This document shows, one piece after another, positions 1 to 17,061 of a stretch of 36,270 bases of DNA (positions are counted from its first letter, which is position 1; each line of letters opens with the position of its first letter). The position numbers were made by a program, and so were the translations under genes. The notes beneath the pieces are model-generated. The model was not told where the DNA came from. It searched no databases and saw nothing but the letters and a program-made list of their open reading frames with translations. Origin of the DNA: an uncultured Rickettsiales bacterium (GTDB taxonomy: Bacteria; Pseudomonadota; Alphaproteobacteria; Rickettsiales; UBA8987); the NCBI GenBank assembly GCA_964352365.1, contig CAYGRX010000002.1:1-36270 (forward strand), given 5' to 3'.

Positions 1-327
1 TTCAGACTCCGTTTCTCCGTAGAAGTTTTTTATTTTTTGTTGTAATAAATTAACTTCTTTATAAGCGTTATCTATAATTTCCAATATACTTGGATTATCT
101 TTGTAATTTTTCTTACTAGTTTCTAAGGCTTCTTTTAACTCATTAACTGGATAGTGATCAATCATAAACTGTCTAATTTCTTCTCTTGCAGTAACGAATT
201 CTTCTGGCTCTCGTTTACTCAAGTCAAAACCTAAATATTTTTCTATAAAGAGATTGGTTTTTGGGTGCTTGCTATAGTCAATTCTTTCTATCTTGAAGCC
301 TTCATCGTATCCGTTTTTTGTGGTCAT
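1..327 (-). CDS. hypothetical protein, N-terminal part (gene runs off the left edge)
   Basis: Open minus-strand frame from ATG (complement of 325-327) to the window edge. It is preceded by an AGGAGAT Shine-Dalgarno-like sequence (complement of about 331-338). Translation begins MTTKNGYDEGFKIERIDYSKHPKTNLF. Absent from the supplied track, probably because it is truncated. No family recognised. Confidence 0.45.
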   Translation of the reverse strand, partial: MTTKNGYDEGFKIERIDYSKHPKTNLFIEKYLGFDLSKREPEEFVTAREEIRQFMIDHYPVNELKEALETSKKNYKDNPSILEIIDNAYKEVNLLQQKIKNFYGETESE

Positions 328-381
328 TATAATCTCCTATCTCCTTATCAAGGTATTATAATATTATTATAAACGAAAATA

Positions 382-398
382 GTTAACAAAGTGTTAAC
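382..398. promoter_or_regulatory. palindromic GTTAAC-N5-GTTAAC box (TTAA-N7-TTAAC geometry), variant of the recurrent 16-nt box
   Basis: GTTAACAAAGTGTTAAC lies directly after the oxyR stop codon and about 55-70 nt upstream of the ATG of the minus-strand gene at 1-327. It differs from the TTAACAAAAGGTTAA core only at two spacer positions. Confidence 0.45.
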
Positions 399-1262
399 CT
401 AAATAATCTTATCAGTAATGCTTCTGAATAAATCTTCTCTATGGCTATTTTTTCTATAAATAAGGCCGATTTTCCTATAGGCAGCAGTGTCTTTTTCAAA
501 CTTTATATAAACTAGTCCGTCATCTTTTTTTGCTATTTCAGGCATTAAAGTTATCCCTACTTCTGCTAATACCATTTGCCTTAAAGTTGCTAAGCTAGTT
601 GCTCTAAAGCTTTTATCTTCTTTAACCCCAGTGGCCTCGCAAAAGCTGATAGCTTGATCACGCAGGCAATGTCCATCCTCAAGCAAAAGCAAGTCTTCAC
701 CTTCTAAATCACTCGGCTTAACAGATTTATGCTTAGCTAGTTTATGGTTTTCTGGGACGGCTAAATAAAACTGTTCTTCAAAAATCTCTATTGATTCAAA
801 TTCAGTTTCTTTAATTGGTAGTGCTAAGAATGCTATATCAATTTTTCCTTCCTTGAGCATTTTAGTAAGGATTTCAGTTTTTTCTTCAATTAAATATAAT
901 TTTAATTCGGGGAAATGCTTTCTAATAGTTGGTATAATTTTAGGGAAATAATATGGTGCTAGTGTTGGGAAGCCGCCAATCTTAATTTCTCCACTTAGTG
1001 GGTTGCTATATGCTTTAGCAATATTTAAGATGCTTTGCTCATGTCCTAAAATTATTTTCGCTTCTTCTAAAACCTCTTTGCCTGCTCGGGTCAAAAGAAT
1101 GTTATTATTGTTTCTTTCAATTAGTTGAACTTGTAAAAACTCTTCAAGTTTTTTTATTTGCATGCTCAAGGTCGGCTGGCTTACAAAGACTGCATCAGCT
1201 GCCTTTCTAAAGCTTTTATAGTTGTCTAATGCAACAAGATATTTTAGGTCACGTAAATTCAT
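399..1262 (-). CDS. oxyR: LysR-family hydrogen peroxide-sensing transcriptional regulator OxyR
   Basis: N-terminal LysR HTH (FRKAADAVFVSQPTLSMQIKKLEEFL). The redox-switch segment LLLLEDGHCLRDQAISFC matches the E. coli OxyR Cys199/Cys208 region almost residue for residue. Divergent from ahpC. Confidence 0.93.
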   Translation of the reverse strand: MNLRDLKYLVALDNYKSFRKAADAVFVSQPTLSMQIKKLEEFLQVQLIERNNNNILLTRAGKEVLEEAKIILGHEQSILNIAKAYSNPLSGEIKIGGFPTLAPYYFPKIIPTIRKHFPELKLYLIEEKTEILTKMLKEGKIDIAFLALPIKETEFESIEIFEEQFYLAVPENHKLAKHKSVKPSDLEGEDLLLLEDGHCLRDQAISFCEATGVKEDKSFRATSLATLRQMVLAEVGITLMPEIAKKDDGLVYIKFEKDTAAYRKIGLIYRKNSHREDLFRSITDKII

Positions 1263-1287
1263 TATCTTCCTTATATTTATTGTTATG

Positions 1288-1324
1288 ATAGGTATAGACT
1301 ATCACATTCATAAAATCAATTGAT
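1288..1324. promoter_or_regulatory. candidate OxyR operator in the oxyR/ahpC divergent promoter region
   Basis: ATAG-N7-CTAT-N7-ATAA-N7-TGAT follows the four-element spacing of the OxyR consensus ATAG-N7-CTAT-N7-ATAG-N7-CTAT. The first two elements are perfect and the last two degenerate. It lies between oxyR (start 1262) and ahpC (start 1431). Confidence 0.55.
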
Positions 1325-1430
1325 TGTACAAATTAATTTAAAATAGGTATAAACTTAACTTGTAAACAGAAATTAAATAATTAACTTCTACTTACTATAA
1401 TTTAACAACTAACAAAATGGAGAAAATTAA

Positions 1431-1970
1431 ATGTTAGGAATAGGTCAAAAACTACCAGAATTTAAAGTAACTGCTACAACAACTAATGATATAAAAGATT
1501 CATTTGTAGAAATAGACAACAATACATATGAAGGTAAGTGGTTAGTGTTATTTTTCTACCCGAAAGATTTTACATTTGTTTGCCCAACTGAGATTGCAGA
1601 ATTTGGCAAATTAACTGGTGAATTTGCAGATAGAGACGCGCAAGTTTTAGGTGCTTCTGTTGATAGTGAATTTGTTCACATGGCTTGGAGAAACTCTCAT
1701 GATGATTTACGTGAGCTTCCATTTCCACTAATAGCTGATGTAAAGCGTGAGCTTTCTGAGTCTTTAGGTATTCTAGATCCAGAAGCAGGTGTTTCGCAGC
1801 GTGCAACTTACATCATTGACCCTCAAGGAATTATCCGCTTCGTATATGTAACTGATCTTTCTGTTGGTCGTAGCCCTAAAGAAGTTTTACGTGTTCTTGA
1901 TGGTCTACAATCCGATGAGCTTTGCCCATGTAACTGGAATAAGGGCGAAGAAACTATAAAGGTAGCATAG
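1431..1970 (+). CDS. ahpC: peroxiredoxin AhpC (AhpD-dependent, mycobacterial-type)
   Basis: Peroxidatic Cys motif FFYPKDFTFVCPTE and C-terminal DELCPCNW with two Cys, as in AhpC enzymes that pair with AhpD. AGGAG-like RBS (tggagaaaattaaATG). Confidence 0.93.
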   Translation: MLGIGQKLPEFKVTATTTNDIKDSFVEIDNNTYEGKWLVLFFYPKDFTFVCPTEIAEFGKLTGEFADRDAQVLGASVDSEFVHMAWRNSHDDLRELPFPLIADVKRELSESLGILDPEAGVSQRATYIIDPQGIIRFVYVTDLSVGRSPKEVLRVLDGLQSDELCPCNWNKGEETIKVA

Positions 1971-1985
1971 TTTAAATTTTTTCTT

Positions 1986-2069
1986 TTGGGCTTCGTTACC
2001 CTGTGGATAATTATTTTATCATGTATTTATAATACGCTTAAAAATAATTACCTTGGTTGCCTAGCCCAA
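1986..2069. repeat. long imperfect inverted repeat in the ahpC-ahpD spacer
   Basis: Outer arms TTGGGCT (1986-1992) and AGCCCAA (2063-2069). Inner arms TAATTATTTT (2008-2017) and AAAATAATTA (2041-2050). The 23-nt loop carries TATAAT (2028-2033). A consensus DnaA-box 9-mer, TGTGGATAA, sits in the left arm (2002-2010). Confidence 0.5.
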
Positions 2070-2113
2070 TTCAAAAAATAATATTAAACTTCTAGACCTA
2101 ATAAAATTAGTCC

Positions 2114-2131
2114 TTCCCACGAAGGTGGGAA
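2114..2131. other. perfect 7-bp stem-loop TTCCCAC-GAAG-GTGGGAA
   Basis: Seen directly, 34 nt upstream of the ahpD ATG. There is no U-tract on the plus strand, so it is not a classical terminator. Confidence 0.5.
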
Positions 2132-2164
2132 TCTAAATAACAACAATAATAACGGGAGGTTTTT

Positions 2165-2692
2165 ATGTCTATAGATAACTTAAAATCACAAATTGGTGAT
2201 TATGCAAAAGATATTCGCTTAAACTTAGGTTCGGTTTTAACTACTGGCTATGAAGGTTTGACTGATTCTCAGGTTGCGCAAATTGCAATTGCTTCAGCAT
2301 ATACAACGCAAAATGAAGTGGTAATTTCTGAAATTGTTGATGAATTTCAATCTAAAATCTCAGAAGCGGAATTTGAGGCAGCGAAATCTTCTGCGACAAT
2401 TATGGCAATGAATAATGTTTATTATCGTACTATCCATTTTACTGGTGATGATGAATATATGAAATTATCCGCGGGTCTACGTATGCAAGTAATAGCAAGT
2501 CATGGCATTAGCGGTGTTGATTTTGAGCTTACTTCAATTGCTGTGTCTGCAATTAATGGGTGTGAATTTTGCGTTAAATCCCATGTTGCAAAAGTAACAA
2601 AAGAAGGCTTAAGTAAGCAAGGTGTCCAATCTACAATTAAAATTGCGGCAGTTCTAAAAGCGGTGGCGCAAGCTATAGTTATTGGAAAATAA
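2165..2692 (+). CDS. ahpD: alkylhydroperoxidase AhpD (carboxymuconolactone decarboxylase family)
   Basis: CxxC-H active-site motif NGCEFCVKSH. Size about 175 aa, position after ahpC, RBS GGGAGG. Confidence 0.9.
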   Translation: MSIDNLKSQIGDYAKDIRLNLGSVLTTGYEGLTDSQVAQIAIASAYTTQNEVVISEIVDEFQSKISEAEFEAAKSSATIMAMNNVYYRTIHFTGDDEYMKLSAGLRMQVIASHGISGVDFELTSIAVSAINGCEFCVKSHVAKVTKEGLSKQGVQSTIKIAAVLKAVAQAIVIGK

Positions 2693-2718
2693 TTAGAAAC
2701 AAAAAATAGGATTAGAAA

Positions 2719-3153
2719 ATGGCGAACAAAACAGCAGAAAATCTAAAGCAAGTACTAGCAGATAGTTATGCTCTTTATGTGAAAACTCAAAACTTCCACT
2801 GGAATGTTACGGGGCCTAGCTTTAGGTCATTACATTTACTATTTGAAGAGCAATATACTGACCTTGCCGCAGCAATTGATGAAATAGCGGAGCGTATTAG
2901 AACTTTAGGTGAAAAAGCTCCAGGTTCGTTTAAGTCATATACCTCTAGAACAAAAATTTCTGATGGTGATGAAAATACTGAAGCCTCAGAAATGGTTAAG
3001 CAATTAGCCGAAGACCAAAAAAAGATTGTTGAATCTTTAAAAGTGGCTTTTGATTCGGCGTCTGAAGCAGGTGACGAAGCAACTGTTGACTTAATGGTTG
3101 GTAGAATCACCGTTCACGAAAAAAACGGCTGGATGCTAAATAGCAGTATTTAA
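2719..3153 (+). CDS. dps: Dps-family DNA-binding ferritin-like protein
   Basis: Dps ferroxidase-site region YVKTQNFHWNVTGPSFRSLHLLFEEQY...DEIAERIRTLG. Length 144 aa. Confidence 0.9.
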   Translation: MANKTAENLKQVLADSYALYVKTQNFHWNVTGPSFRSLHLLFEEQYTDLAAAIDEIAERIRTLGEKAPGSFKSYTSRTKISDGDENTEASEMVKQLAEDQKKIVESLKVAFDSASEAGDEATVDLMVGRITVHEKNGWMLNSSI

Positions 3154-3167
3154 AGCTTGAGTAAAAA

Positions 3168-3205
3168 GGAGGAGGGATGCAGTAATCTGCCAATCTCCCT
3201 CCTCC
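3168..3205. terminator. GC-rich stem-loop, probable bidirectional terminator (dps on plus; small ORF on minus)
   Basis: GGAGGAGGGA (3168-3177) pairs with TCCCTCCTCC (3196-3205). It is preceded by an A-run on the plus strand, which reads as hairpin plus TTTTT on the minus strand. Confidence 0.55.
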
Positions 3206-3212
3206 CGGCCAC

Positions 3213-3368
3213 CTACTTTATGTCTATGGAAGATTCAATAAATCCTTCCACATCCATAATCTCTACACTGCCCAACCACAATAATATTGCGAACAGTAAT
3301 AGAGAAGCGATGATGAACAATAATGTTCCATCGCTGCAGGCTCTTTTGGCCTGGTTAAATAATGCCAT
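3213..3368 (-). CDS. candidate 51-aa single-TM small protein (not in ORF track)
   Basis: Minus-strand ATG..TAG encodes MALFNQAKRACSDGTLLFIIASLLLFAILLWLGSVEIMDVEGFIESSIDIK, with one clear hydrophobic helix. It ends 8 nt before the hairpin plus T-run at 3168-3205. No obvious Shine-Dalgarno. Confidence 0.3.
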   Translation of the reverse strand: MALFNQAKRACSDGTLLFIIASLLLFAILLWLGSVEIMDVEGFIESSIDIK

Positions 3369-3450
3369 ATCTTAAATCTAGAAAAATTAATTTTTCTAGG
3401 GAAATTTTCATTGAAAATTATTTTTGCAAAAGAATTATATCATAAATTAG

Positions 3451-3466
3451 TTAACAAAAGGTTAAT
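3451..3466 (+). promoter_or_regulatory. recurrent 16-nt box TTAACAAAAGGTTAAT upstream of pyrB
   Basis: The TTAACAAAAGGTTAA core is identical to the box at 16506-16522 (opposite strand). It differs from the RTX boxes only at position 3 of the box (A here, G there). It lies 81 nt upstream of the pyrB ATG. Confidence 0.55.
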
Positions 3467-3531
3467 TGCTTTAAAATAACTTGCATTGAGGATAGACATG
3501 AGATATATGATAGCTCTAAAATAGCTGTAAA

Positions 3532-4470: not shown

Positions 4471-5789
4471 TGTCGAAATTTTCTTACCCAAATACTGAAG
4501 TTAAAAATGTGGTTCTTTTTAAAAATGCTATTTTAGTTGATCCTGAAAATGGAACTGAGCAAAAAGGTGAACTTTTGGTAAAAAATGGGATTATAGATTC
4601 CGTTGGTTCACTGGAAAAATCAAACATAACTAGTGGTGCAAAAATTATTGATTGTGAAGGTATGCATTTAGCGCCAGGTTTAATTGAGGTTCAGGCGCAT
4701 ATAGGTGAGCCAGCTGGTGAGTATAAAGAAAATTTGAACGAAACTACAAAATCAGCTGTTGCAGGTGGAGTAACTACTATTAACATAATGCCAGATACTA
4801 CTCCAGCTATAGATACTACAACAATTTTAGAGTTCATTAAAAATAGAGCAAAAGAAAAATCTTATTGTAACGTAACAATATTTGGCTCAGTCACCAAAAA
4901 TATTGAAGGTAAAGAACTATCGGAAATTGGCCTGTTAAAAAAAGCAGGAATTAAAGGTGTTTCAGATGGGTCTGCAAATGTTCAAGATTCTATGATATTT
5001 AGAAGGGCATGCGAGTATGCGGCAAACTTTAATCTTTTAATTGCTCACCAGCCAAATGATAATTATTTGTCTAGTGGTGGGGTTGTTAATGAGGGGTTAA
5101 TATCTAGTAGGCTTGGCGTTGAAGGCATACCAAACATTGCTGAGAAGATTGGCTTAGAAAGAGATTTGGCGATAGCAACTTTGATTGGTGTTAGGTATCA
5201 CGCGCTTAACGTTTCTACAAAAGAATCAGTGCAGACATTAGAAAAATATAAAGAGACCAACTCAAAAATTTCTGCGAGTGTTACCCCGCATCATATTTCA
5301 TTAACGGATGTTGAGGCGAATAACTACAGGACATTTGCAAAAACAAGCCCACCCCTTAGGTCTGAAGATGATAGGCGGGAATTAGTTAAATCATTGAAAA
5401 ATAATATTATTGATTTTATCTCATGTAATAATATGCCCCGTTCGGAAGATCAAAAGCGCCTTCCTTTATCAGATGCTAAATTTGGCGTAATAGGCTTGGA
5501 AACTATGTTTTCTGCTACTATCACATCATTAATGTCTGAAGGGTTCTCAATTTCTGAGATCATAAAATTGCTGTCTTTAAGGCCTGCGCAGTTTTTAGGC
5601 TTGAAAAATAAAGGTAAATTGAGTAAAGGCAGTGTTGCAGATTTGTTTTTATTTGATATAAACAAAGAACGAAAAGTAAATCCTGAAGAGTTTTCTGGTA
5701 AATCAGTAAACTCGCCTTTTGATGGTAAAAGGCTTAAGGGTAAGATACTTAAAACATTTATATCTGGGGAGCTGGTATATGAGAACTAA
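4470..5789 (+). CDS. dihydroorotase-like protein, probably non-catalytic PyrC-prime
   Basis: The amidohydrolase fold aligns with type I DHOase (PGLIEVQAHIGEPAG, VTPHH), but metal and catalytic ligands are replaced. HxH is QAH, the HVxHVST-type motif is HALNVST, and DHAPH is NNMPR. Its ATG overlaps the pyrB stop (TAATG). Confidence 0.8.
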   Translation: MSKFSYPNTEVKNVVLFKNAILVDPENGTEQKGELLVKNGIIDSVGSLEKSNITSGAKIIDCEGMHLAPGLIEVQAHIGEPAGEYKENLNETTKSAVAGGVTTINIMPDTTPAIDTTTILEFIKNRAKEKSYCNVTIFGSVTKNIEGKELSEIGLLKKAGIKGVSDGSANVQDSMIFRRACEYAANFNLLIAHQPNDNYLSSGGVVNEGLISSRLGVEGIPNIAEKIGLERDLAIATLIGVRYHALNVSTKESVQTLEKYKETNSKISASVTPHHISLTDVEANNYRTFAKTSPPLRSEDDRRELVKSLKNNIIDFISCNNMPRSEDQKRLPLSDAKFGVIGLETMFSATITSLMSEGFSISEIIKLLSLRPAQFLGLKNKGKLSKGSVADLFLFDINKERKVNPEEFSGKSVNSPFDGKRLKGKILKTFISGELVYEN

Positions 5790-8211
5790 AAATAGCAGAA
5801 AATTTATTGTGGCATTAACGCTTGCGGCTTGTGTTTCACCAATAGCTGTTGCTGCTCAAACTTCTAAAGCGGTATATGAAGATTATAGTGGTGTTCCAAA
5901 GTCACTACGTAACGCATTGGAAAGTGGGGATGTTTACGATAATGGTTATGCTAGAAAAACACGTAACCCTGCAATTTCTGATTATTCAAGAAATCTGAAT
6001 GCAGCTAAGCAAGTTGTTTATGAAGAATCCATTCCAGTTATTACTGCTGAAACCAAAGTTGTTGTTGATGAAAACCCTGCTGTGGTAAAGACTACAACTA
6101 TGCATCAGCAAGAAACATTTACTAGACCTGGTGCCACAGTTGATAAGCCTGAGGTTTTAAACTCAGTATTTAGAGATCCATATTCAGGCTACACTTATAG
6201 TGAAGCCGAGGCAAAAGATGCTGGAAAATTAGGTATGCACGCCCTTGCGCAAGATGCAATTGTTGGTGCTTCTCCTACACTTCCTGTTCGTTCTATTGAA
6301 ATTAAAAGAGATAAGTTCTACAAGGAACAAGAAGGTAAAAGATATATTCTTGATGATGATGGTTCAAAATTTGAGCTGAAAGGTCAAAAAGTTAATATTT
6401 ACGATGGTAGCTTGCTTCCTGAAGGCTATGAAGTTGAAAAGAAGCCTATTAAAATTCCTTCTTATCAGTTGAAAGGTCTTTATAAGGAAGATTCTACAAA
6501 CACAAAAAAAAACTCTAAAGAATACCTTAAACTAAATTTTTTAAAGAAACATCTTGATAAAACACCTGAGTCGTACGCTTTTTCGCATTTTCAACCATTT
6601 CAGTTGGCAAATGAAGGTGACGTATTCACCTTTCCTGATGAGGCAAGTGTAACTACTCCTTCTGAAAAGCTTTCTAGAAGACCTGTTACTAATAATGCTA
6701 GAAGGCCAGCGAATACAGATTCTAATTTAACAATTGATGCATCAAATATTAAGAATACAGCATCATCAAGGTCATTTGAATTTGTTGATGAAGAGGCTAA
6801 ACCCAAAACCTTGAAGGAAAAAAAAAGCCCATCATCTCTCTCTAAGAGGCAGCAAAAGCGTCCTATAAATCCGCAATCCAAAGTTTACGATCAGCAATCT
6901 ACATATATGAACCCTCTAAGTCAAAATTTAGAGGCCACTTCAATGGAAGAGGTTCTTGCGGTTGCTTATAAAGAAAATCCAAATTTAAATTCATCTAGAG
7001 AGGCGTTGAAGGCGTCTGATGAAACTATTCCACAAGCTTTCTCAGGATATTTACCAAGAATAAGTGCTAATATTTCCAATGCATATACAAAGTCAGAAAA
7101 TGAAGATGGTGATAGTGGCAAGTTTTATCCGGACACTCAAAGTTTAGATATACAGCAAAGTATTTTTGGTGGTGGGGAAACCTACTATGCATTGAAGGCT
7201 GCAAAGAATAGGGTGCTAGCTGCTAGAAACGAACTTCGTTCAGTTGAGCAAGATTTCCTTTTAGAGGGTATAAACGCATATATTGATCTTATTTTTACAA
7301 AAAAGGTTCTTATTCTTTCTGAAAATAACGAAAATGTTTTATCTCAACAGTTAGAGTCTGCAAAGGAGCGTTTTATAATTGGTGATGCTACAAGAACTGA
7401 TGTTGCTCAATCAGAGGCAAGGTTGGCAAATGCTGTATCTAACAGAGTTATTGCAAATGGTGATTATATAAATGCAAAATCCAACTATCGTAGGGTTTTT
7501 CAAATGGATCCACCAGAAAATATGTTAATGCCAACAGCTTTACCTGAAATACCATTGAATTTTGATGATGCTATGAGTGCGGCAATTTCTGTTAGTCCTA
7601 ATATCAATAGAGCAAAATATTTACTTGAAGCTAGTGAATCTGAAATAGATCAAAGAACTTCTCAGTTATATCCTCAGTTGGATTTAGATGCTGATATTAC
7701 TAGAAGAGATAGCGTTTCAGGAAATAGCTTGTTTGAAACAAACTCTGAATCAGTGAGTCTAAATCTAACAATACCTCTTTACACGCAAGGTACTAATTTT
7801 TCAAGAGTTAGAGAAGCTGAAAATAGAAAGTCTCAGTCTAGGTTTGAGTATCAAAATGCGCTTAATCAACTTAGGGATAGAATGCAGCAATCTTGGCAAA
7901 ATCTAACAGTTACTGCATCAAATATAGAGGCGACAAAAGCAAGCTTAGTTGCTTCGGAATACGCGCTTGAAGGTGTTAAAGAGGAGCAGAAAGAAGGTGC
8001 TAGAACCATTCTGGACGTGTTAGATGCTGAGCAAGAAAGGTTCCAATCGGAAATTTCTCATGCGAGGGCAATTAAGGATAGTGTTCTTGCCGTTTATCAG
8101 TTAAAATCTGCAATGGGTGAGTTGAATCCGGAAAGCCTATCTCTTCCTGTTAGGAGTTATAATCCAGAAATTCACTACAATGAAACAAAGAATAAATTGT
8201 TCGGTTTTTAA
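5779..8211 (+). CDS. tolC: TolC-family outer membrane efflux/secretion protein with long N-terminal extension
   Basis: Start taken at the internal Met, giving a signal peptide MRTKNSRKFIVALTLAACVSPIAVAAQ. The track ORF starts at 5719. The C-terminal 428 aa or so (from about 6928) show the duplicated TolC repeat pattern (AYKENPNLNSSREALKASDE..., later SVSPNINRAKYLLEASESEI...). Confidence 0.85.
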   Translation: MRTKNSRKFIVALTLAACVSPIAVAAQTSKAVYEDYSGVPKSLRNALESGDVYDNGYARKTRNPAISDYSRNLNAAKQVVYEESIPVITAETKVVVDENPAVVKTTTMHQQETFTRPGATVDKPEVLNSVFRDPYSGYTYSEAEAKDAGKLGMHALAQDAIVGASPTLPVRSIEIKRDKFYKEQEGKRYILDDDGSKFELKGQKVNIYDGSLLPEGYEVEKKPIKIPSYQLKGLYKEDSTNTKKNSKEYLKLNFLKKHLDKTPESYAFSHFQPFQLANEGDVFTFPDEASVTTPSEKLSRRPVTNNARRPANTDSNLTIDASNIKNTASSRSFEFVDEEAKPKTLKEKKSPSSLSKRQQKRPINPQSKVYDQQSTYMNPLSQNLEATSMEEVLAVAYKENPNLNSSREALKASDETIPQAFSGYLPRISANISNAYTKSENEDGDSGKFYPDTQSLDIQQSIFGGGETYYALKAAKNRVLAARNELRSVEQDFLLEGINAYIDLIFTKKVLILSENNENVLSQQLESAKERFIIGDATRTDVAQSEARLANAVSNRVIANGDYINAKSNYRRVFQMDPPENMLMPTALPEIPLNFDDAMSAAISVSPNINRAKYLLEASESEIDQRTSQLYPQLDLDADITRRDSVSGNSLFETNSESVSLNLTIPLYTQGTNFSRVREAENRKSQSRFEYQNALNQLRDRMQQSWQNLTVTASNIEATKASLVASEYALEGVKEEQKEGARTILDVLDAEQERFQSEISHARAIKDSVLAVYQLKSAMGELNPESLSLPVRSYNPEIHYNETKNKLFGF

Positions 8212-16443: not shown

Positions 16444-16505
16444 TAGAATCTGCTAAACCCTTAAATTTTAAGGTCTTATAACGATTTTTACTAAAAATTT
16501 CAAGC

Positions 16506-16522
16506 GTTAACCTTTTGTTAAT
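16506..16522 (-). promoter_or_regulatory. recurrent 16-nt box (reads TTAACAAAAGGTTAAC toward mnmG), canonical TTAA-N7-TTAAC
   Basis: Lies in the 118-nt divergent spacer between mnmG (ATG 78 nt away) and the orphan ORF at 16562. A TTGAAA-17-TATAAG sigma70-like promoter follows it on the minus strand. Confidence 0.55.
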
Positions 16523-16561
16523 TAAATTGGGTTATAATGACACAAACTGGGGTATATAATT

Positions 16562-17047
16562 ATGAGATCAAATCAAATTAAAAGTTTGGAATCTTTTATG
16601 AGCGCATTTAGAGCTTATATCATGTCTAGTCCATCTAAATATAACCAGCAAATTACTGATTATGAAGTCATAGACTTTTCCTACACTAACAGGGTGGAAG
16701 GACTTTCAGATTTAAGGGATCAAATTATTGATTTAGTTGCTGATGTAACTGGGGCTAGTAAAGTGGAAAGCCTTTCTACCTCCCTTCCTGATTTACTATT
16801 CCCTAATGATTATAACAAAAAATCTGATTTTAATAAATGTTTTGATGATTTTGCAGTTAGGATAAGTCAGGTTAGTAGATTTGCTTCTAATCTTAACCAG
16901 TCTCATGTAAAGAAGAATAAAAGAGTAAACACACCAGTTGAAGAGCAAAACTTATCTAAAGCTGAATTAAAGCAAAACAGGAGCGAAAGTATTCAAATTC
17001 TTAAACTCCAAAGGGCTAAAAGACAGTCTAATGAAATGCTATTATAA
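16562..17047 (+). CDS. hypothetical protein (orphan, hydrophilic, basic C-terminus)
   Basis: 161-aa ORF in a clean intergenic slot, with TATAAT-like elements upstream. No family recognised. Confidence 0.5.
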   Translation: MRSNQIKSLESFMSAFRAYIMSSPSKYNQQITDYEVIDFSYTNRVEGLSDLRDQIIDLVADVTGASKVESLSTSLPDLLFPNDYNKKSDFNKCFDDFAVRISQVSRFASNLNQSHVKKNKRVNTPVEEQNLSKAELKQNRSESIQILKLQRAKRQSNEMLL

Positions 17048-17061
17048 ATAATATGAAAAAC

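Follow-up and report, generated by a model that had tools for sequence, protein, structure and literature searches.

A 16-nt box that recurs between genes in the DNA of an uncultured, AT-rich alphaproteobacterium is, with a probability that we put at about 0.7, a near-consensus full site for a CtrA-type response regulator (OmpR family) at a predicted promoter. In particular, the box probably takes the place of the -35 in a small class of promoters, TTAAC-N6-TTAA(C)-N11-TATAAT, in which the start of transcription was placed by means of the -10 hexamer. This predicted bipartite architecture is present far beyond chance and recurs in relatives of the organism. We hold with greater confidence than the CtrA-type reading itself that the orientation of the predicted -10 elements assigns the sites to a gene cut by the contig end (minus strand), a 51-codon ORF (minus strand), an orphan ORF (plus strand) and two RTX genes, and not to pyrB or mnmG (Table 1).

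The window (that is, the whole stretch of DNA that was analysed) is a complete contig of 36,270 nt with a GC content of about 35%. Marks of the Alphaproteobacteria in the window include PopZ/DUF2497 and a Caulobacter-type FtsN/SPOR protein, and the closest relatives of its mnmG and pyrB genes are labelled Alphaproteobacteria or Rickettsiales. The gene order is oxyR (minus strand), ahpC, ahpD, dps, pyrB, pyrC, tolC, PopZ/DUF2497, yraN, a BON protein gene, ybeY and xth, followed by argS, a SPOR/FtsN-like gene, mnmG (minus), the orphan (plus), apaG (minus), yejF, secA, glmS (minus) and rimK, and finally the two RTX genes, a CN-hydrolase gene and a carboxylate-amine ligase gene. Neither a tRNA nor an Rfam family was found in the window. 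Relatives (77–79% amino-acid identity for mnmG and 86% for pyrB) were found by protein searches and their contigs were then fetched; a search of species-representative genomes with an mnmG peptide pattern returned no close relative. The genes ctrA, cckA and chpT are present neither on the 36-kb contig nor at the fetched loci of the relatives. Because CtrA is widely conserved in Alphaproteobacteria (PMC9437464, PMC9791040), the presence of the regulator in the host was assumed.

Table 1 Coordinates of the boxes, promoter elements and genes in the window
Feature	Coordinates	Strand	Description
Site 1, 16-mer match	383-398	+	
Site 2, 16-mer match	3451-3466	+	
Site 3, 16-mer match	16506-16521	-	
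RTX-1, 16-mer match	29228-29243	+	
RTX-2, 16-mer match	31335-31350	+	
Site 1 box	383-397	-	TTAACACTTTGTTAA, TTAA-N7-TTAA; directly after the oxyR stop codon
Site 1 -10	366-371	-	Perfect TATAAT, 11 nt downstream of the box
Site 1 bipartite match	366-397	-	Perfect TATAAT exactly 11 nt after the second TTAA
Site 1 predicted target	1-327	-	5' part (109 codons) of a gene cut by the contig end; AGGAG ribosome-binding site
Site 2 box	3451-3465	-	TTAACCTTTTGTTAA
Site 2 -10	3434-3439	-	Perfect TATAAT, 11 nt downstream of the box; directed away from pyrB
Site 2 bipartite match	3434-3465	-	Perfect TATAAT exactly 11 nt after the second TTAA
Site 2 predicted target	3213-3368	-	51-codon ORF, one hydrophobic helix; possibly a small RNA instead; no family known
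Site 2 intrinsic terminator	3163-3205	-	GGAGGAGGGA...TCCCTCCTCC, then a U run
Site 3 box	16507-16521	+	TTAACCTTTTGTTAA
Site 3 -10	16533-16538	+	Perfect TATAAT, 11 nt downstream of the box; toward the orphan ORF
Site 3 bipartite match	16507-16538	+	Perfect TATAAT exactly 11 nt after the second TTAA
Site 3 predicted target	16562-17047	+	Orphan ORF, 161 codons (149 from the second ATG at 16598)
mnmG own promoter	16475-16503	-	Sigma-70-like TTGAAA-N17-TATAAG; begins 3 nt beyond the site 3 box
RTX-1 promoter	29228-29259	+	TTGACAAAAGGTTAATTTTTAGTTAATATTAT; TATTAT 11 nt after the box
RTX-1 gene	29303-31198	+	RTX calcium-binding repeat protein, 631 aa
RTX-2 promoter	31335-31366	+	Paralogous copy of the 31-nt block; TATTAA at N11; TTGACA-N17-TAATAT
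RTX-2 gene	31409-33103	+	RTX calcium-binding repeat protein, 564 aa

The degenerate 16-mer TTRACAAARKGTTAAY has exactly five matches in the 36,270-nt window and none in 100 dinucleotide-preserving shuffles, which bears out the count of five sites made in the initial annotation of this DNA; three of the ranges given there were correct, and two (382-398 and 16506-16522) were each one base too long. On the opposite strand the box has the sequence [GA]TTAAC[CA][TC]TTTGTTAA, that is, TTAA-N7-TTAA. All five sites are intergenic, as had been claimed, and each is oriented toward some gene; for site 1 the orientation toward the truncated gene that the annotation gave agrees with that of the -10. Note that the boxes of RTX-1 and RTX-2 represent one duplicated promoter, so that the window contains four independent sites. 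Half-sites of the form TTAACCAT occur in the window at chance frequency, with no enrichment.

What sets the box apart is its partner. The pattern TTAA-N7-TTAA-N11-TATAAT has three exact matches in the window when 0.01 are expected; thus TATAAT lies 11 nt after the box at all three of sites 1–3, and it does so at all three of the sites found in relatives. The RTX sites have the same 11-nt spacing in the forward orientation, to TATTAT (RTX-1) and TATTAA (RTX-2). No sigma-70 -35 element is present at a spacing of 16–18 nt at sites 1–3, where the hexamer at 17 nt is ACACTT or ACCTTT (0/6 matches), and these promoters therefore look activator-dependent. When six promoters of the lineage were aligned, TTAA, TTT (spacer positions 8–10), TTAA and TATAAT were invariant and conservation was confined to the box and the -10. 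The annotation had named a longer dispersed repeat as a finding that would speak against the box; such a repeat was looked for and not seen, and it is excluded because the flanks are unrelated outside these two elements. The only copies in the window with shared flanks are the two at the RTX genes, as part of the gene duplication. The box-to-ATG distances reported earlier (81, 78, 75, 74 and about 70 nt) are numerically correct, but the fixed distance to a start codon that they appeared to define is incidental: the constant spacing is that to the -10 hexamer, 11 nt beyond the box, and with the targets corrected the box-to-ATG distance ranges from 55 to 97 nt. With the predicted TATAAT at -12 to -7, the 5' T of the box would fall at about -38.

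Two other stretches of the window resemble the pattern. The sequence TTAACTTAAAATTAAC upstream of secA (20008-20023), which had also been pointed out, does exist but has no -10 at the spacing of the class and so falls outside it. At 25944-25975 (minus strand), TTAATTTGGAGTTAA-N11-TTTAAT differs from the bipartite pattern by one mismatch and lies antisense inside an aminotransferase-class-IV gene; this may mark a promoter, internal or antisense, or be a chance match.

The box agrees closely with what is known of CtrA. The established consensus sequences are TTAA-N7-TTAAC and TTAACCAT (PMC9791040; PMC9437464), and global 5' RACE in Caulobacter showed that full CtrA motifs at activated promoters have their 5' base near the -35 (PMC4287350), with 31 of the 44 full motifs listed in dataset S5 starting at -38 to -40 (PMC4287350). 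Sites 1–3 are perfect TTAA-N7-TTAA with TTAAC, and their 5' T, at about -38 when the start is taken from the -10, lies within that Caulobacter reference range of -38 to -40. These results support the CtrA geometry seen in the annotation; in addition, the -35 region is overlapped and the host is alphaproteobacterial. Its remark that a conserved spacer is not expected for CtrA did not hold up, since the spacer matches the majority of the 31 mapped Caulobacter sites and recurs in other Alphaproteobacteria. In particular, the majority base at each position of those 31 sites gives TTAACCATT(C/T)GTTAA, as compared with TTAACCTTTTGTTAA here, and the box equals this majority sequence at all positions but position 7. 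At spacer positions 8–10 of the Caulobacter sites T makes up 35–42%, and there is hardly any A at positions 8 and 10. The Caulobacter genome has a GC content of about 67%, against which 35–42% T is an enrichment. Because the spacer fits the Caulobacter majority, the conserved spacer can be read as that of a consensus CtrA site, sharpened by an AT-rich genome.

Individual CtrA-activated promoters of Caulobacter crescentus (ctrA P2, fliQ, ccrM and divK, among others; PMC4287350) have the same dyad at the same spacing, the same C5, C6, T-rich centre and G11, and a 5' base at -38 to -40 that overlaps the -35 region; promoters in that organism use both orientations of the motif, as the RTX sites do here. 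Unlike those of Caulobacter crescentus, the promoters described here have a perfect TATAAT and an almost invariant spacer in a genome of 35% GC, and whereas the Caulobacter targets are flagellar, chemotaxis and division genes, those in the window are orphans and RTX genes for which CtrA control is predicted from the sequence. Consensus boxes before non-conserved genes of unknown function are also a feature of CtrA-binding sites in phages of Alphaproteobacteria (PMC9437464), and heterologous Caulobacter CtrA shifted probes of such phage sites in EMSA (PMC9437464). Unlike the phage sites, nothing in the window looks phage-derived and the genes here are single chromosomal insertions. At class II promoters of the OmpR/PhoB family (Pho box), the -35 gives way to a pair of half-sites spaced by one helical turn, and a good -10 is retained. 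The mechanism would be alike, but the half-site sequence differs from that of the box.

The same box occurs in other genomes. The exact 15-mer was found at no fewer than 119 loci in species-representative genomes, at least 55 of them alphaproteobacterial by title (median GC 0.59). Among the matches listed, the next base is C at 42 of 55 alphaproteobacterial sites as compared with 14 of 58 sites in other taxa, the next three bases are CCA at 16 of 55 as compared with 1 of 58, and 45 of 62 alphaproteobacterial or probably alphaproteobacterial sites have no spanning ORF of 150 aa or more. In the TTAACC orientation the downstream genes include at least four minC genes, at least two flagellin genes, at least one MipZ-like gene and at least three genes for OmpR-family regulators; a housekeeping mix lies downstream in the opposite orientation, among the matches listed. 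In an AT-rich Rickettsiales metagenome-assembled genome (L068) the 15-mer is followed by C, with TAGGAT after 11 nt, and the downstream gene, one of those for OmpR-family regulators, encodes a CtrA ortholog (367.8 bits; NCBIfam cut-off 350). Thus an identical, intergenic and gene-directed box, TTAACCTTTTGTTAA(C), stands before ctrA (L068), minC (Shinella, Ciceribacter and Mesorhizobium) and flagellin (Rhizobium), usually followed by C or CCAT, and those genes are known members of the CtrA regulon. Most of these genomes, unlike the one described here, are GC-rich and are without a TATAAT -10. (In a further uncultured Rickettsiales genome, L192, TTAAC-N6-TTAACCTTTTTGTGGTATAAT occurs at 2614-2645 on the minus strand and at 7312-7343 on the plus strand, with identical downstream halves, before genes for two proteins of 194 aa and about 465 aa without a Pfam family; the pair may represent the same promoter class in another AT-rich alphaproteobacterium.)

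In neither the window nor the relatives did any of the non-RTX targets have a Pfam family or a real homolog. For the product of the truncated gene at site 1, the sole match of the 109-aa N-terminus in an exhaustive search was a 4007-aa repetitive protein, which pairwise BLAST marked as spurious. Site 2 heads a compact unit of predicted promoter, 5' hairpin, ORF and terminator, whose transcript has a far more stable predicted fold than shuffled sequences (z = -6.65). A perfect 22-nt palindrome, CTAGAAAAATTAATTTTTCTAG, at 3378-3399 in the predicted 5' UTR of the 51-codon ORF could act as an RNA hairpin or as an operator. (The 51-aa product was compared with proteins of 60–63 aa encoded behind equivalent promoters in relatives and was not homologous.) For the orphan at site 3, a set of 5.8 billion proteins contained no homolog, and syntenic relatives do not have the gene; exact-protein look-ups of the orphan and of AhpC gave no record either. 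Together with its promoter (16504-17061) the orphan occupies, in antisense orientation, the interval from apaG to mnmG, where it faces apaG tail to tail at 14 nt from the stop codon of that gene, and this segment looks, from its sequence and position, like a lineage-specific gene insertion. The box region has a weak likeness to the apaG-mnmG spacer of one relative (L126), within chance for AT-rich sequence.

Several further features of the contig were seen. The oxidative-stress cluster next to site 1 (399-3153; oxyR on the minus strand, ahpC, ahpD and dps) is conserved in the relative L127 and absent from L128. Between a 100-aa ORF (18983-19285) and secA lie about 840 nt (19286-20124), a distance of 81 nt in the syntenic relative L122; this extra DNA, which looks like a second insertion, contains a 102-aa orphan ORF on the minus strand (19472-19780), terminator-like hairpins at 19418-19448 and 19623-19641, and the TTAA-N7-TTAAC upstream of secA. 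We also considered a replication origin, given mnmG (gidA) together with CtrA sites, and rejected it: DnaA boxes are at chance level and there is no GC-skew switch, the cumulative GC skew climbing across the window with small local dips only (from -0.03 to 2.17, ending at 2.12).

The two RTX promoters differ from those at sites 1–3. Each consists of TTGA-N7-TTAA and an overlapping perfect TTAA-N7-TTAA, so that in RTX-1 three half-sites are in phase (TTGA-N7-TTAA-N7-TTAA); the same stretch can be read alternatively as TTGACA-N17-TAATAT, and the third in-phase TTAA overlaps the TAATAT -10 region at both sites. Of the five sites, these two alone have the plain sigma-70 arrangement of a TTGACA-like -35 and a TATAAT-like -10 at 16–18 nt, and they could function as plain sigma-70 promoters. 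The good TTGACA, together with the third half-site over the -10, implies that CtrA may modulate these promoters and not be strictly required. RTX-1 and RTX-2 share a block of roughly 90% identity that begins some 5 nt ahead of the box and takes in the 5' UTR and the first ~30 codons, whereas the proteins are 36% identical overall. The near-identical 5' regions (29223-29395 and 31330-31500) encode N-termini of the form MLxKNQNTKNNxxNSLLKNDxSLL, and their identity as against the 36% elsewhere points to gene conversion or to strong selection on the 5' end. In the relative L252 a TTAA-rich stretch at 5480-5573, before a gene for an RTX protein of 330 aa, contains several TTAA-N7-TTAA and TTAA-N7-TTGA arrangements in 11-bp phase; it resembles the three in-phase half-sites of the RTX promoters in the window, with no clear -10 assigned.

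The annotation had assigned the boxes at sites 2 and 3 to pyrB and mnmG and had proposed a regulon joining pyrimidine synthesis, tRNA modification and RTX secretion. That the box serves pyrB, mnmG and the RTX genes, perhaps through bidirectional use of a nearly symmetric site, now appears very unlikely. Similar box-to-ATG distances (74–81 nt), a weak TAACTT at N11 on the pyrB side of site 2 and a site 3 box that abuts the -35 of mnmG are what speak for such use, but at both sites the perfect TATAAT is on the opposite strand, and the hexamer at N11 on the mnmG side is TTTAGT. In relatives, moreover, the genes and the box come apart. Four relatives have neither the orphan nor the box, and in two of these a sigma-70-like mnmG promoter homologous to that in the window can still be seen (TTGAAA-N16-TATAAA in L126 and TTGTGT-N17-TATAAA in L122). 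In L122, L126 and L251, apaG and mnmG are adjacent and co-directional, 65–68 nt apart; in L252 and L123 an MCP gene is in place beside mnmG, again with no box. Since the relatives without the orphan are also without the box, the box is found only where the orphan gene is. Upstream of pyrB, two relatives have a box that lies close to a divergent gene and about 350 nt from pyrB, namely TTAAGATTTTTTTAA-N11-TATAAT, 50 nt from a divergent gene for a 364-aa protein (L127), and TTAACCATTTATTAA-N11-TATAAT, 71 nt from a divergent gene for a 60-aa protein (L128); L129 and L130, which have no divergent gene before pyrB, have no box there. A further copy in L127, TTAACAATTTATTAA-N11-TATAAT, precedes a gene for a 63-aa homolog of the 60-aa protein of L128, so that the relatives contribute three more exact bipartite promoters, all before genes for uncharacterised proteins (60, 63 and 364 aa). 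Since 3 nt separate the end of the site 3 box from the mnmG -35, mnmG may be affected as well; secondary effects of the box on pyrB or mnmG may occur, yet the arrangement is not conserved in the relatives.

If the box does serve the orphan and RTX genes, the protein that reads it could still be a dimeric regulator other than CtrA that recognises the palindrome TTAAC-N5-GTTAA with a T-rich spacer and governs a regulon of orphan and secreted proteins particular to this lineage, whether it stands in for the -35 as an activator or blocks it as a repressor. The targets do lie outside the classical CtrA regulon (flagella, chemotaxis, division and cell cycle), for which none of the three orphans and two RTX genes of the window qualifies; the invariance of TTT at spacer positions 8–10 in the six lineage promoters is tighter than in Caulobacter; and neither the contig nor the fetched loci carry a ctrA gene. 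We nevertheless consider such a regulator unlikely, given that the box has the consensus sequence of CtrA sites, with C5, C6, T-rich centre and G11 alike, that the identical 15-mer precedes ctrA, minC and flagellin genes in other Alphaproteobacteria, and that its position fits that in CtrA-activated promoters; a pure repressor, in addition, fails at sites 1–3 because these have no usable -35. Classical targets are in any case not strictly defining, since the content of the regulon varies between lineages, and they should exist elsewhere in this genome: the relative L128 has fliL, fliM and a gene for a single-domain response regulator at 210-3501, and the flagellar genes and the MCP genes beside mnmG in L123 and L252 indicate that the lineage is probably motile. 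It is far less credible, indeed extremely improbable, that sites 1–3 are remnants of repeats or mobile elements, or ordinary strong promoters of recent insertions, with a likeness to CtrA sites that is a by-product of AT-rich DNA. The orphan at site 3 and its box do sit between genes that are adjacent in relatives, and in AT-rich genomes, whatever the phylum, many matches to a bipartite pattern of comparable AT content arise by chance. This base rate was taken from a control pattern, TTAANNNTTTNTTAA-N11-TATAAT, whose matches in representative genomes were overwhelmingly chance hits from AT-rich phyla (for the most part Firmicutes, Campylobacterota, Bacteroidota and the like, with 6 alphaproteobacterial among the 80 loci listed). 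However, C5 and G11 are both present in 1 of 122 control matches, among the matches listed, as compared with all three window sites (C5 is present in all six lineage sites except that at L127 9652); no similarity between the flanks reaches past the box and the -10; three matches in the window stand against 0.01 expected; and no sigma-70 -35 is present at a usable spacing.

Under the CtrA-type reading that we favour, phosphorylated CtrA would bind as a dimer, its 5' edge near -38, to two TTAAC half-sites that are separated by one helical turn. The bound CtrA~P would overlap the -35 region and recruit RNA polymerase as a class II activator, as at Caulobacter promoters, and expression of the accessory genes would accordingly follow CtrA activity. 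At the RTX promoters, TTGACA and the third half-site could allow basal transcription with modulation by CtrA.

The mechanism is well known, and what is new is the further instances in an alphaproteobacterium that is uncultured and AT-rich. The regulon first proposed is tempting but is corrected here as wrong, pyrB and mnmG being bystanders whose spacers are shared; once a nearly symmetric site is read along with its -10, it becomes clear which of two divergent genes is served. TTAAC-N6-TTAA(C)-N11-TATAAT provides a clean signature for likely CtrA-dependent promoters in AT-rich uncultured Alphaproteobacteria. Every instance found in the lineage serves an orphan or accessory gene, and one such gene is absent at the same position in relatives. 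The promoter sequences suggest that in this lineage CtrA-type control extends to lineage-specific orphans and RTX exoproteins, genes that are otherwise without a functional lead. As a tentative and rather doubtful extension, a consensus CtrA-type box with a perfect -10 might constitute a portable expression module that plugs new genes into one master regulator, or the box might belong to a distinct, undescribed regulator of accessory genes; if the portable-module idea is true, its users would be orphans, small membrane peptides and RTX proteins that were newly acquired or have newly arisen.
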